Virus record (IMG/VR): IMGVR_UViG_2585427728_000007
DNA: 42,114 nucleotides
DNA from: a virus
Lineage: Duplodnaviria; Heunggongvirae; Uroviricota; Caudoviricetes
Direction: 5' to 3' (one strand)
In this document: in pieces, positions 1 through 42,114 of the stretch
Layout of the letters: every line of letters starts with the position of its first letter
Numbering within the stretch: the stretch's first letter is position 1
The notes under the pieces: model-generated
Seen by the model: the letters and a program-made list of their open reading frames with translations, nothing else
Databases searched by the model: none
What the model was told of the DNA's origin: nothing
Position numbers and translations under genes: made by a program

Positions 1-1158
1 ATGCTCACCGTTAAGCAGATTGAAGCAGCAAAGCCGAAAGAAAAACCATACCGCCTTCTCGATGGTAATGGCCTGTACCTTTATGTCCCTGTATCCGGGA
101 AAAAGGTATGGCAGCTTCGCTACAAGATTGACGGTAAGGAGAAAATCCTGACCGTAGGAAAATATCCGCTTATGACTTTGCAGGAAGCAAGGGATAAAGC
201 ATGGACCGCGAGGAAAGACATCTCGGTTGGCATCGATCCGGTAAAGGCGAAAAAGGCTTCGTCTAACAACAATTCATTTAGTGCGATTTACAAGGAATGG
301 TACGAGCACAAGAAGCAAGTCTGGTCAGTAGGCTATGCAACTGAACTTGCCAAAATGTTTGATGACGACATTTTACCCATCATCGGCGGCCTTGAGATTC
401 AGGATATTGAGCCGATGCAACTGCTGGAAGTAATCCGCAGATTTGAAGATCGCGGTGCAATGGAGCGAGCCAACAAAGCCCGCAGAAGATGCGGCGAGGT
501 TTTCCGTTACGCTATTGTCACCGGCAGGGCTAAATATAACCCAGCACCTGACCTTGCTGACGCCATGAAGGGATACCGCAAGAAGAACTTCCCGTTTCTT
601 CCTGCAGACCAGATCCCGGCATTTAACAAAGCACTGGCAACATTTTCAGGAAGTATCGTATCGCTCATTGCGACCAAAGTTTTACGCTACACAGCCCTCA
701 GAACAAAAGAGCTTCGTTCCATGCTATGGAAGAACGTCGATTTTGAAAACAGGATTATCACCATCGACGCCAATGTGATGAAGGGACGCAAGATTCATGT
801 GGTTCCGATGTCGGACCAGGTGGTTGAACTTCTCACTACGCTAAGCTCCATCACTAAACCAGTATCAGAGTTTGTTTTTGCCGGACGCAACGATAAGAAA
901 AAGCCAATCTGCGAGAACGCGGTGCTACTTGTGATCAAACAAATCGGCTATGAAGGTCTGGAAAGCGGTCACGGATTCAGGCATGAATTCAGCACGATTA
1001 TGAACGAGCACGAATGGCCTGCCGACGCCATTGAAGTGCAACTGGCACATGCCAACGGCGGTTCTGTGCGTGGAATTTACAACCATGCTCAGTATCTCGA
1101 TAAGCGCAGAGAAATGATGCAGTGGTGGGCGGATTGGCTTGATGGAAAGGTGGAGTAA
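1..1158 (+). CDS. int: Tyrosine recombinase / phage integrase (P4-type N-terminus)
   Basis: 385 aa ORF; N-terminus MLTVKQIEAAKPKEKPYRLLDGNGLYL typical of P4-like integrases; C-terminal catalytic region with GHGFRHEF and terminal Tyr motif (VRGIYNHAQY). ATG at nt 1. Confidence 0.9.
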   Translation: MLTVKQIEAAKPKEKPYRLLDGNGLYLYVPVSGKKVWQLRYKIDGKEKILTVGKYPLMTLQEARDKAWTARKDISVGIDPVKAKKASSNNNSFSAIYKEWYEHKKQVWSVGYATELAKMFDDDILPIIGGLEIQDIEPMQLLEVIRRFEDRGAMERANKARRRCGEVFRYAIVTGRAKYNPAPDLADAMKGYRKKNFPFLPADQIPAFNKALATFSGSIVSLIATKVLRYTALRTKELRSMLWKNVDFENRIITIDANVMKGRKIHVVPMSDQVVELLTTLSSITKPVSEFVFAGRNDKKKPICENAVLLVIKQIGYEGLESGHGFRHEFSTIMNEHEWPADAIEVQLAHANGGSVRGIYNHAQYLDKRREMMQWWADWLDGKVE

Positions 1159-1341
1159 TACTCCTTAACCACTATCGAAGAGCACAAAGCCTTGCAATCC
1201 AGTGCAAAGATTTGTGTGCCTCAGTTTTGTCTAAGTGTTCTACTGAAAACATAGTAAAATCGGCAACAGTTGGAAATCATTCAATACTCGCACTATCGAA
1301 AGTTCGCCAGCCAGCCGCAGCACGTTCTTGCATACGACGTG

Positions 1342-1724
1342 TGAAGTGGTCAACAAAAACTGGCCACCGAGTTAGAGTTTTTCCAGTATCGATTTTCCGA
1401 TTCGTTTGGGGGTAACCCACCGTTATATTCGTGCGGTCTTAGTGCGCTGTAATATCCAACGATATAGTCCGTTATGGCGTGAGCTGCCTCGCTGAAGCTT
1501 ACGTAACCCACCACCGGCATCCATTCGTTCTTCAGACTCCTGAAGAAGCGTTCCATTGGGCTGTTATCCCAGCAGTTTACGCGCTATTGCTGACGCTGAG
1601 ATAGCCTGGCGGCAGGATGCAGTTGATGTTGGTATCGCGAAGGATGAGGAAACCGTCGCTCTGGCCGAATGGAAGAAATATCGGGTCTTGCTAATGCGTG
1701 TCGATACAGCAAAACCCGTATGGC
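1342..1724 (-). mobile_element. IS3-family insertion sequence remnant (terminal inverted repeat plus decayed 3' end of transposase orfB)
   Basis: Plus strand at 1342 reads TGAAGTGGTCAACAAAAACTGGCCACC, an IS3-family-type terminal repeat beginning TG; the minus-strand ORF next to it encodes the transposase C-terminus; upstream in the same frame the motif ..[12 protein letters not shown].. is interrupted by an in-frame stop at 1584-1586, so the gene is truncated. Confidence 0.6.
1350..1556 (-). pseudogene. IS3-family transposase OrfB, C-terminal fragment
   Basis: 68 aa [15 protein letters not shown]...[34 protein letters not shown] matches the conserved C-terminal region of IS3-family (IS911-like) transposases; the N-terminal catalytic part is absent. 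Confidence 0.65.
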
Positions 1725-2159
1725 CTACGCATCCGGAGGATCAGGCCAGTTAATGTTTGGCGCGCTGGAGGTGTCTACTACTTCCAGCGCATCCAGGTAA
1801 TCCAGCCAAAGGTTATATCGTTCCAGTTCATCCGCCTTTAAACGGCCTATCGCTGCTTTTCCCGGCCACTGACGTTTGTTTATATAAACATTTGCCTCAT
1901 CAATGAGCTGCTGTCTCATATTCTCTGCATTCGATGCCATTTCCTCTGCGGTGGGTGGAGGAATTTCAAGCCAGCAGGGCATACCTGCATCATCCACTCC
2001 ACGATACTTACCTGCTGGCGGCTCATCGATAAACTCAAGATAAAGACTTTCGTCAACCTCCAAGGCATCAGAAGGCCATGAGTCTGCAGCAATATAGCTT
2101 TCCTTAAGCTCCCCGGCATAAAACGCATTTTCTGATGGAGAAAAATATTTCAGATTCAT
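1725..2159 (-). CDS. Tail fiber assembly protein (chaperone)
   Basis: 144 aa; C-terminal region ...MRQQLIDEANVYINKRQWPGKAAIGRLKADELERYNLWLDYLDALEVVD... is the conserved caudoviral tail-fiber assembly (Tfa) domain; sits immediately downstream of the tail fiber gene (stop TGA, one base, then ATG). Confidence 0.8.
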   Translation of the reverse strand: MNLKYFSPSENAFYAGELKESYIAADSWPSDALEVDESLYLEFIDEPPAGKYRGVDDAGMPCWLEIPPPTAEEMASNAENMRQQLIDEANVYINKRQWPGKAAIGRLKADELERYNLWLDYLDALEVVDTSSAPNINWPDPPDA

Positions 2160-2160
2160 T

Positions 2161-2877
2161 TCAGTACCCTATTGCAAGATAACGACCGTAACACAAATCA
2201 CTGTCACTACTGCGCGTCACTGCAGCACCCACTGAGTCAGCACGTAAGCTCATCGCCGTCGCAGTGATAGTGGTTCGGCTTGTTGGGGCAATTGCATATA
2301 CTGTCGGTCGTGCGGTTTGTATCACATTATCATGTGTTGCATATGCCTGCATAACCATAGTAGGAAAAGCAATCGGCAGATTAATATCCACAGTGCCGCC
2401 TGATCTCAGAGATGTCATTACTCCCCATTGCATAATAAGCGTCTTACGCGTACCGCCAATCATCATCGGAAATATGGCATATCCGGTTTCGCCCATACTA
2501 CCTGTCGCAACACCTGTAGCACTGATATCTCCTAAACCAAGGTTTTCGAGAGCCGTTTTCACCGTGCCATCCGATTTGATATCGCCAAACGGATTCTTGC
2601 GGCTCAGGTATTCAACAGCAAACCCCGATCCCAGCAATTCAACAAAACCGGGCAGATCACCATTATCAAGCACATCCCGTTGCGTTTTGTCACTTACAAA
2701 CTGGGCCAGAGCTGCAGCAATAAAGCTGGCCTGCCGAATAACCTTATTGACTTGCGCACTGGATGCTTTCCCTGCTGTAAATCCGGATAAAAGCGCAGGC
2801 AACGCTTCCCATTCCTCCTGCGACATAACATTGGCATTCCGATCAGTTGCAAACGCTTTAAAGTCATTTTTCGCCAT
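2161..2877 (-). CDS. Tail fiber protein
   Basis: Start taken at ATG 2877 (MAKNDFKAFATDRNANVMSQEEWEALPALLSGF...), which overlaps the stop of the upstream baseplate gene as TGATG; conserved tail-fiber N-terminal region followed by a variable C-terminal part; followed by a Tfa gene. Confidence 0.7.
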   Translation of the reverse strand: MAKNDFKAFATDRNANVMSQEEWEALPALLSGFTAGKASSAQVNKVIRQASFIAAALAQFVSDKTQRDVLDNGDLPGFVELLGSGFAVEYLSRKNPFGDIKSDGTVKTALENLGLGDISATGVATGSMGETGYAIFPMMIGGTRKTLIMQWGVMTSLRSGGTVDINLPIAFPTMVMQAYATHDNVIQTARPTVYAIAPTSRTTITATAMSLRADSVGAAVTRSSDSDLCYGRYLAIGY

Positions 2878-41788: not shown

Positions 41789-41793
41789 CCACA

Positions 41794-41822
41794 GCCTCAC
41801 ACTCGATGAGGCATTTTCATTT
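41794..41822 (+). terminator. Rho-independent terminator (first of a tandem pair before the xis-like gene)
   Basis: GCCTCA-(7 nt loop)-TGAGGC followed by ATTTTCATTT. Confidence 0.5.
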
Positions 41823-41847
41823 ATCAAGATATCCAGACCTACCATCG

Positions 41848-41868
41848 CCGCATCAATGCGGTTTTTTT
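41848..41868 (+). terminator. Rho-independent terminator (second of the pair)
   Basis: CCGCA-TCAA-TGCGG followed by TTTTTTT. Confidence 0.55.
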
Positions 41869-41913
41869 ATTGCCTGATTTGCAGGTTCGATTCCCTATTC
41901 GGAGATAGCACTC

Positions 41914-42114
41914 ATGCAACACGAACTACAGCCTGATTCACTGGTTGATTTGAAATTCATCATGGCCGATACTGGCTTCGGTAAAACCTTCATCTATGAC
42001 CGGATTAAGTCCGGCGACCTGCCTAAAGCCAAAGTTATCCACGGTCGAGCAAGATGGTTATATCGTGACCATTGTGAATTCAAAAATAAGCTCTTAAGCC
42101 GCGCCAATGGGTAA
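41914..42114 (+). CDS. AlpA/Xis-like DNA-binding protein (excisionase-type regulator)
   Basis: 66 aa; ...LKFIMADTGFGKTFIYDRIKSGDLPKAKVIHGRARWLYRD... matches the AlpA-family helix-turn-helix found with P4-type integrases; stop codon is the last three bases of the window. Confidence 0.7.
   Translation: MQHELQPDSLVDLKFIMADTGFGKTFIYDRIKSGDLPKAKVIHGRARWLYRDHCEFKNKLLSRANG

Follow-up and report, generated by a model that had tools for sequence, protein, structure and literature searches.

In the Escherichia coli prophage KplE1 (CPS-53), the integrase gene intS is the first gene of the integrated element and torI, which encodes the recombination directionality factor (RDF, or excisionase), is the last (PMC3509656; PMC2951348). 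The module formed by attL, attR, IntS and TorI is conserved among the phages that insert in argW, attL overlaps the intS promoter, and the transcription of int and that of the RDF gene are uncoupled (PMC3509656; PMC2951348); TorI is 100% identical to HkaC and to P18 of Sf6 (PMC3509656). Experiments on KplE1 have established IntS- and TorI-dependent excision and the autoregulation of intS at attL: IntS catalyses both integration and excision, TorI directs excision with host factors by binding to attL, and intS is transcribed from its own promoter in attL under repression by IntS and TorI (PMC2951348; PMC3509656). Here, we analyzed a 42,114-nucleotide (nt) stretch recorded as a virus of the Caudoviricetes (IMGVR_UViG_2585427728_000007; "the window" below means this whole stretch), which opens with an integrase gene and closes with an excisionase gene. 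The original prediction took it for a phage genome opened at int and not for a prophage in a chromosome; our results contradict this, and we are highly confident that the window is a full-length E. coli prophage integrated in argW and trimmed to the interval from intS to torI.

The open reading frames (ORFs) of the window were annotated by Pfam, with some of the Pfam assignments being precomputed ones on identical genes of collinear loci. The two terminal genes are as follows.

1-1158, plus strand: intS, tyrosine integrase of the KplE1/HK620/Sf6 type, 385 codons, first gene of the integrated prophage (ORF listing, Pfam, comparison with K-12)
41914-42114, plus strand: torI, RDF (excisionase), 66 codons, last prophage gene; attR starts directly to the right of the window

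The ATG of int occupies nt 1-3 and the TAA of torI occupies nt 42112-42114, so that, as predicted, a co-oriented int start and xis-like stop form the edges of the window. IntS differs from its E. coli K-12 counterpart at 2 of 385 residues (1112 of 1158 nt are identical), the gene is 95-97% identical in DNA to the int genes of HK633, HK620, CUS-3 and Sf6, and a protein identical to the window integrase carries the Pfam domains Arm-DNA-bind_3, Phage_int_M and Phage_integrase. The product of the last ORF matches TorI (PDB 1Z4H, "Tor inhibition protein") at all 66 amino acids; its gene shares 196 of 201 nt with K-12 torI, and the collinear prophage of strain EH08-18-36 carries a torI annotation. 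The expectation that int should sit next to xis in an integrated prophage is valid for lambda and P22, but not for the IntS/TorI family (KplE1, HK620, Sf6, CUS-3). In the P22 record, attP lies beyond int, so int and xis remain together in the prophage; in the Sf6 record, the attP core sits between gene 18, the TorI homologue, and int. Because attP lies between the RDF gene and int in the KplE1/HK620/Sf6 family, the integrated order is int first and torI last.

The integrated state was found in E. coli contig JOSQ01000111.1 (GCA_000713775.1; 344,734 bp), which was reached via exact-protein look-ups and in which four overlapping loci tile the window. Positions 259250-301363 of this contig align with the whole window without a single indel and differ from it at 9 of 42,114 nt (99.98%). 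Host genes are contiguous with both ends, an observation of the kind that the original prediction had itself named as refuting it: fadL, yfdF, mlaA, yfdC and a tRNA-Arg(CCT) gene (locus L008, 5765-5839) lie to the left of int, and dsdC, dsdX, dsdA and emrY lie to the right of torI. The 3' end of this tRNA gene is the 16-bp core CTGCAGGGGACACCAT, located 160 bp before the int ATG (L008, 5825-5840); a second copy of the core stands 73 bp past the torI stop (locus L014, 6745-6760). The Sf6 record annotates the same 16-mer as its attP core. Across the entire window, including 1159-1341, where the attachment site had been placed, neither CTGCAGGGGACACCAT nor any of its sub-words of at least 10 nt occurs; the cores lie 160 bp to the left and 73 bp to the right of the window instead. 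In complete E. coli RefSeq genomes and phage records, no identical copy of the window was found, and none of these sequences covers at least 80% of either window end.

Rebuilding the spacer between torI and int from the two flanks gives 73 bp, the 16-bp core and 160 bp, that is, 249 bp running AATAGCGGG...CTGCAGGGGACACCAT...TTTTTACCC, which differs at 8 positions from the xis-int spacer of Sf6 and at 13 from that of HK633. The att arms are likewise close to those of K-12 (attL, 167 of 176 positions identical; attR, 85 of 88). The core positions uphold the prediction that excision makes int and the xis-like gene co-oriented neighbours in a circle, which, from this reconstruction, would measure 42,363 bp (42,114 + 249); simply joining the window ends does not yield a complete circle, since the 249-bp attP spacer, which is present in the free phages Sf6 and HK633, would be missing at the joint. 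The coincidence of window edges with coding-sequence edges is the product of trimming to the first (intS) and last (torI) coding sequences, and the element extends beyond both sides: the window lacks attL and the intS promoter, which fall in the 176 bp immediately to its left, and attR to its right. Cutting an RDF-attP-int prophage at its coding-sequence edges is what creates the appearance of a permuted circle.

Many complete E. coli genomes, such as ATCC 8739, contain an uninterrupted, 100%-identical match to a synthetic 401-nt empty site composed of the left flank, one core and the right flank; at a threshold of at least 80% cover in one place, the site is present in 912 of the 5,426 E. coli genomes. 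The intact empty site and the cores at both ends together indicate that the element is a discrete insertion bounded by two cores. The site is an insertion hotspot; approximately 83% of complete E. coli genomes have no intact empty site, and similar prophages occupy argW in many sequenced E. coli genomes. In the closed chromosome of E2348/69, the order is yfdC, tRNA-Arg, intS and then tail-fibre and baseplate genes; in that of EH08-18-36, it is argW-intS ... torI-dsdC across approximately 41 kb; and the K-12 annotation of CPS-53 reads argW-intS ... torI-pawZ-dsdC. Everything testable about the argW recombination module of KplE1, HK620 and Sf6 was found here, namely, an IntS-type integrase, a TorI/HkaC-type RDF, insertion in argW with the core duplicated at attL and attR (in the 99.98%-identical contig), the placement of attP and an unoccupied attB, and so was the family layout, in which int shares the orientation of the tRNA, its promoter lies within attL and the RDF gene comes last. 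In other strains, the identical int protein adjoins differing cargo, including P22-like genes, SfV/Mu-Gp45-type genes and gtr cassettes. As a separate observation, one locus (L053, Logan SRR2054381_50, approximately 7100-8900) appears to be a deleted derivative of the same prophage type, with cI-cro-cII fused to a Dit-like tail gene in a single CII+Dit_like ORF and with dsdA, dsdX and csc genes as neighbours.

The region beside int, where the attachment site had been predicted, contains the following features.

1159-1341, unstranded: non-coding stretch downstream of int, common to HK633; not an att site
1342-1584, unstranded: end fragment of IS911 (IS3 family of insertion sequences), 243 bp, 99.2% identical to IS911 of E. 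coli genomes and to the Sf6 copy
1350-1556, minus strand: C-terminal 68 codons of IS911 orfB (Pfam rve_3, rve_2)
1556-1753, plus strand: inverted 65-codon fragment of a second tail-fibre assembly protein gene (TAP'; Caudo_TAP match on the identical ORF in two other loci)

The insertion-sequence remnant noted near int is therefore real, being the IS911 fragment at 1342-1584, and it abuts the TAP' fragment (1342-1753); tail-fibre assembly and fibre genes on the opposite strand adjoin int. The 1159-1341 stretch is 95% identical to HK633 (JQ086377.1; locus L002, 3683-3838), whose GenBank record places an "attP" at 3754-3834, downstream of int, on the ground of its likeness to the ykgJ-yagV intergenic region. 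HK633, however, carries an exact copy of CTGCAGGGGACACCAT between xis and int (L002, 2325-2340), as do Sf6 and HK620. Because the genuine argW core sits there, the annotated attP of HK633 is doubtful and probably wrong, and the likeness of 1159-1338 to it was set aside as evidence for an att site.

Eight relatives retain a fibre gene, TAP, TAP', a second fibre gene (fibre') and a Resolvase/HTH_7 invertase gene. A look-up with the tape-measure protein surfaced relatives located at a different site, in which the invertible fibre segments are intact; JOSQ01000111.1 was not among them. TAP' is the relic of such an invertible segment, from which the alternative fibre gene and the invertase have been lost, and the host-range segment seems to be truncated and locked. 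In four other argW prophages, the slot next to int holds oac, acyltransferase, gtr or GDSL-lipase genes. A full IS911 also splits ninG of Sf6 (locus L028, 9779-11642), a gene that is intact in the window (26556-27167); at the position of this Sf6 insertion, alignment blocks overlap by 3 nt (27067-27069), which may be a target-site duplication.

How, then, should the window be read? If it were the complete, circularly permuted genome of a free phage (virion or episomal DNA) opened at the int start codon, with attP at 1159-1341, one would account for the co-oriented int and xis-like genes at opposite ends, for the single copy of each module, for the position of int beside tail-fibre genes, which resembles the lambda vegetative map, and for the HK633 "attP" downstream of a 95%-identical int. 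We consider this highly improbable, because the joined ends would be devoid of the torI-attP-int spacer present in Sf6 and HK633, no piece of the att core lies in the window, and the 99.98%-identical copy has host genes on both sides and a core duplicated at its ends; moreover, the empty site occurs in other genomes, and the argW core between xis and int of HK633 deprives its downstream "attP" of any force. That the int end and the torI end derive from two elements, either tandem or adjacent prophages or an assembly chimera, would suit a hotspot in which few complete genomes have an intact empty site and the same int protein is found beside very different cargo. This we regard as vanishingly improbable: one pair of cores, spaced by 42.4 kb, encloses a single int, a single torI and a single set of modules, no internal or third core, second integrase or second RDF occurs inside the element, its size is that of one phage genome, and the same layout recurs in independent closed chromosomes.

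An integrated prophage could nevertheless be defective (cryptic) in the manner of KplE1 and yield no infectious particles. The IS911 fragment and the truncated, locked fibre segment beside int point in this direction, as do a 704-bp cassette with an HNH-AP2 endonuclease gene between the -10 element of PR' and the Sf6-type leader and terminator, and a spike ORF of 212-227 amino acids versus 246-251 in relatives. We think such a defect unlikely, given that every ORF scanned with a structural, lysis, replication or regulatory role has its full length and is collinear with its SEN34, Sf6 or lambda homologue, that no essential gene among the ORFs scanned is frameshifted, that the arrangement of Q, HNH-AP2 gene and holin gene recurs in other prophages (L039, L045), and that 42.4 kb is close to the 41.9 kb of Omnitron and the 40.7 kb of SEN34. 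Some points do weigh against our interpretation of the window as an integrated argW prophage trimmed at both ends. The window itself contains no att core, argW tRNA or host DNA; the integrated state is seen in a contig that is 99.98%, not 100%, identical to it; and the same window would result from trimming a predicted-prophage or phage record of a sister strain. Excision and particle formation by this very prophage are predictions from sequence, and the IS911 fragment, the truncated invertible fibre segment and the insertion in the late-operon leader are signs of local decay.

For the argW prophage that we favor, the family layout suggests the following cycle. In the free circle, the order would be torI, 73 bp, the 16-bp core CTGCAGGGGACACCAT, 160 bp and intS, and crossover by IntS at the core would split the torI/intS pair, such that in the lysogen intS and its own promoter would abut attL and argW, whereas torI would abut attR and dsdC. 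For excision, TorI, IntS and host factors would recombine attL with attR, restoring the 42,363-bp circle and placing the 249-bp attP spacer between torI and intS again. The activities of IntS and TorI, the autoregulation of intS at attL and the uncoupling of torI transcription from int are all extrapolated from the work on KplE1, the proteins and att arms of which are near-identical to those considered here.

The torI gene stands last in the leftward early operon, behind the boxB of nutL (33935), N (34211-34594) and the recombination and ea genes, and a terminator scan placed two terminator-like hairpins before it (41794-41812 and 41847-41862); a promoter scan of the region upstream of torI returned no sigma-70-like site and only terminator-like hairpins. 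Judging from this layout, torI expression in the lysogen probably requires N-antiterminated read-through of both hairpins from PL after the loss of repressor, and only the circular form would let the PL transcript run across attP into int. One further feature lies between the hairpins and the gene.

41879-41894, plus strand: TTGCAGGTTCGATTCC, a perfect 16-nt match to the argW T-arm, located 20 nt before the ATG of torI

This copy is the only match in the window, versus none in 100 shuffles, and it is conserved in Sf6 and K-12. It may be the relic of an older tRNA or att end, hinting at how torI came to lie beside attP.

Between its two ends, the window holds each lambdoid module in a single copy: int, the RDF gene, recombination genes, cIII/kil, N with nutL, cI, cro, cII, an O-like initiator, a DnaB-like helicase, nin genes, Q, S/R/Rz, terminase, head and a contractile tail with fibres. 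The inventory, based on Pfam and on comparison with homologues, thus agrees with the expectation of one full set of temperate-phage modules, and the diagnostic lambdoid traits (N/nut, cI-cro-cII, O/P-type replication, nin, Q and S-R-Rz) are present in lambda order. The genome had been described as a mosaic of near-lambda lysis and nin genes, P22-type N and boxB, and a Mu-like virion module. The first two components are sound: S and R are 99%, NinG is 96% and NinI is 95% identical to their lambda counterparts, and N/boxB, as read from the sequence, is P22-like in type and not near-identical; the Mu label is what fails. The lambda-like DNA in the window amounts to 3.4 kb at approximately 94% nt identity. 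The best match of the early and lysis half is Sf6, at approximately 98% nt identity over approximately 13.9 kb (33% of the window), spanning early-left, replication, nin, Q, tRNA and lysis genes.

The virion half comprises the following features.

1725-5794, minus strand: tail-fibre assembly protein, tail fibre (Gp53-like_C), DUF2612 wedge, Baseplate_J, sheath initiator and central spike (Pfam)
5826-6350, unstranded: variable cargo slot in the baseplate cluster, with small ORFs at 5965-6315 (plus) and 5826-6041 (minus)
6354-12915, minus strand: baseplate hub (E217_GP41-like), Pam3_gp18-like, Dit-like, tape measure, chaperone, tube and sheath (Pfam; collinear with SEN34)
8682-10697, minus strand: SLT-domain tape measure (Pfam)
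11304-11744, minus strand: tail tube, KPP10_Orf10 type (Pfam)
11755-12915, minus strand: tail sheath, DUF3383, 386 amino acids (Pfam and solved-structure matches)
12919-22199, minus strand: neck and terminator proteins, capsid, cement, DUF2213, Mu-F-like head morphogenesis protein, portal and terminases (Pfam)
15221-16162, minus strand: major capsid (Pfam)
20020-21642, minus strand: large terminase (Pfam)
21645-22199, minus strand: small terminase (Pfam)

That the tail is contractile, as predicted, is borne out by the matches of the sheath protein to solved myovirus sheaths (7KH1, E=7e-36; the Pam3 sheath 8HDR, E=3e-26) and by the presence of tube, chaperone, tape measure, hub, spike, sheath initiator, Baseplate_J and wedge genes. 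Its relationship to Mu is another matter. Blastn coverage of Mu 9-36.7 kb was zero, and tblastn with all window ORFs returned only Baseplate_J, at 27% over 171 amino acids; the late proteins of Mu (portal gp29, capsid gpT, sheath gpL, tube gpM and baseplate gp44, gp45, gp46 and gp48) were matched by no window ORF in this tblastn search. We reject the Mu label, since Pfam places the sheath, tube, portal, capsid, hub and wedge proteins in families other than those of Mu. Genuine Mu-Gp45/GP46/Gp48 baseplates do adjoin the same int in two other strains, but not here, which indicates that cargo is freely exchanged at the argW site.

The relatives of the virion half lie elsewhere. Twenty-seven consecutive ORFs, the large terminase gene being the first and the tail-fibre assembly gene the last, match Salmonella phage SEN34 (gp2-gp28) in order at 35-98% amino acid identity, and only the two cargo-slot ORFs have no match; identity is 46-83% for the proteins of 1725-5794 (SEN34 gp22-gp27) and 74-98% for those of 12919-22199 (gp2-gp12). 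At the nucleotide level, 1721-21734 is 92% identical to Citrobacter phage Omnitron, spanning 46.5% of the window, and 9238-21734 is 96.4% identical. From this collinearity of genes, the structural module is assigned to the SEN34 (Brunovirus) type, and the early half is unrelated to SEN34. Outside its int/torI module, the element is a recombinant, in which an Sf6-like (P22-group) half carrying early, replication, nin, Q and lysis genes, with S, R and nin genes of the lambda kind, has been joined to a myovirus head and contractile tail of the SEN34/Omnitron type. The cargo slot lies between the hub-side gene and the spike; its ORFs matched only PHROGs families without an assigned function, with no defence or other family match in PHROGs and PADLOC. 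In 13 related loci, the same slot holds a PhdYeFM antitoxin with Fic, a YafO toxin or DUF4236, and it is a hotspot for toxin-antitoxin and moron genes inside the tail operon.

The immunity region and the early-left operon contain the following features.

31258-31554, minus strand: cII (Pfam Phage_CII)
31639-31653 (boxB) and 31677-31684 (boxA), minus strand: nutR, read from the sequence, with a P22-type loop
31692-31925, minus strand: cro; the immunity region spans 31258-32743
32039-32743, plus strand: cI, S24 repressor (Pfam Peptidase_S24)
33935-33949, plus strand: nutL boxB GCGCTGACAAAGCGC, an exact match to the P22 nutL boxB
34211-34594, plus strand: N antiterminator, 127 amino acids (Pfam N_peptide, E=3e-15)
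34654-41788, plus strand: early-left (PL) operon with unassigned ORFs, recombination genes, Ead/Ea22 and DUF551 genes (Pfam on identical genes of locus L014; EH08-18-36 annotation)
about 36530-36798, plus strand: cIII and kil
37053-37760, plus strand: Rad52-like annealing protein
37761-38234, plus strand: SSB
38732-39280, plus strand: 3'-5' exonuclease
39297-39593, plus strand: Abc2 anti-RecBCD protein

The arginine-rich motif and the C-terminus of N resemble gp24 of P22, and the rest has diverged; farther along the operon, 35940-38723 is 98% identical to Sf6 in nucleotide sequence. Two plus-strand ORFs (146 and 118 amino acids) at 32813-33606, between cI and nutL/N, occupy the rexAB/sieB position of other lambdoids. 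They showed no Pfam or PADLOC match and only PHROGs without an assigned function, and they are candidates for exclusion or cargo genes expressed from the prophage. A PHROGs and PADLOC survey of ten unassigned ORFs revealed no defence system, and the only matches apart from function-less families were HNH and Dam.

The lysis, late-leader, nin and replication genes are the remaining features of the Sf6-like half.

23001-23438, minus strand: Rz, 89% identical to P22 and 58% to lambda
23435-23911, minus strand: R endolysin (amino acid identity to lambda as given above)
23895-24218, minus strand: S holin (likewise an amino acid comparison)
24461-24616, minus strand: tRNA-Thr(TGT) and tRNA-Asn(GTT) in the late-operon leader (ARAGORN, Rfam), as annotated in Sf6 and phage 21
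24668-25371, minus strand: inserted stretch of 704 bp that Sf6 lacks, immediately following the PR' -10 element (CATAAT, 25372-25377; blastn breakpoints)
24672-25184, minus strand: HNH_3+AP2 endonuclease ORF (Pfam; PADLOC homing-endonuclease models)
25379-25897, minus strand: Q antiterminator (Pfam)
25379-28455, minus strand: Q and nin region including NinE and a NinB-like gene (Pfam; approximately 98% nt identity to Sf6)
25888-26559, minus strand: NinI phosphatase (amino acid comparison with lambda as above)
26556-27167, minus strand: NinG (amino acid comparison with lambda as above)
27506-28069, minus strand: Dam-type N6-adenine methyltransferase in the nin region (Pfam Dam, E=8e-65; PADLOC orphan methyltransferase)
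28761-30212, minus strand: DnaB-like helicase (Pfam DnaB, DnaB_C; 98.8% nt identity to Sf6, genes 43 and 44)
30187-31077, minus strand: O-like initiator (98.8% nt identity to Sf6, genes 43 and 44)

At the gathering threshold, Rfam detected nothing beyond the two tRNAs. The 704-bp cassette, which sits within the Q-dependent late leader, also holds a 60-codon ORF and has terminator-like hairpins at both borders; the order of Q, HNH-AP2 gene and holin gene is that of the two prophages mentioned above. A bolder proposal would be that the recombinant is an active, inducible temperate myovirus, undescribed as a phage, that the HNH-AP2 cassette and the T-arm copy are both functional, and that torI was captured into the att region. 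Taken jointly, these claims are improbable. If they held, the HNH-AP2 cassette may be mobile DNA directed at the qut region, and the T-arm copy would suggest a capture of torI that could explain why attP lies between the RDF gene and int.

Among the known systems, KplE1 shares with the present element its insertion at the 3' end of argW between yfdC and dsdC and the order of intS first and torI last; unlike this 42.4-kb prophage, in which all modules are present, KplE1 is a remnant of 10 kb that has no genes for immunity, replication, lysis or the virion and has the gtr-type yfdGHI beside int. Shigella phage Sf6 and coliphage HK620 (Lederbergvirus, P22-like podoviruses) have the same torI(HkaC/gp18)-attP-int module with an identical 16-bp core, but they possess P22-type heads and short tails with a tailspike in place of the contractile-tail module. 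Sf6 further differs in its immunity region (approximately 31250-33965 of the window), in the presence of oac beside int and in the IS911 inside ninG. Lambda has the order attP-int-xis, which leaves int and xis together in the prophage, and differs in N/boxB, immunity, O/P and Q as well as in its virion genes, which are those of a siphovirus.

From the large terminase to the tail fibre, the virion module is collinear with those of SEN34 (37-98% protein identity), Omnitron and Escherichia phage vB_EcoM-611R5. SEN34, however, carries an unrelated integrase (25% amino acid identity) beside an AlpA-type gene and has other early genes, whereas vB_EcoM-611R5 differs in its replication genes and has kept the invertible fibre segment intact, invertase included. 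With Mu, the element shares a contractile tail and the widespread domains Phage_Mu_F and Baseplate_J (Mu gp47). For the annotation of prophages inserted in tRNA genes with the RDF-attP-int arrangement, as in KplE1, HK620, Sf6 and CUS-3, int and the RDF gene should be taken to mark opposite ends of the element; recognising this family layout gives the true element ends and averts a wrong assignment of attP. The recombination arrangement described here is already known, the early half is Sf6-like and the structural half is SEN34/Omnitron-like, so that the element is of no kind outside the known ones; it reveals no new mechanism and represents one more case of modular exchange among enterobacterial lambdoid phages at the argW hotspot.

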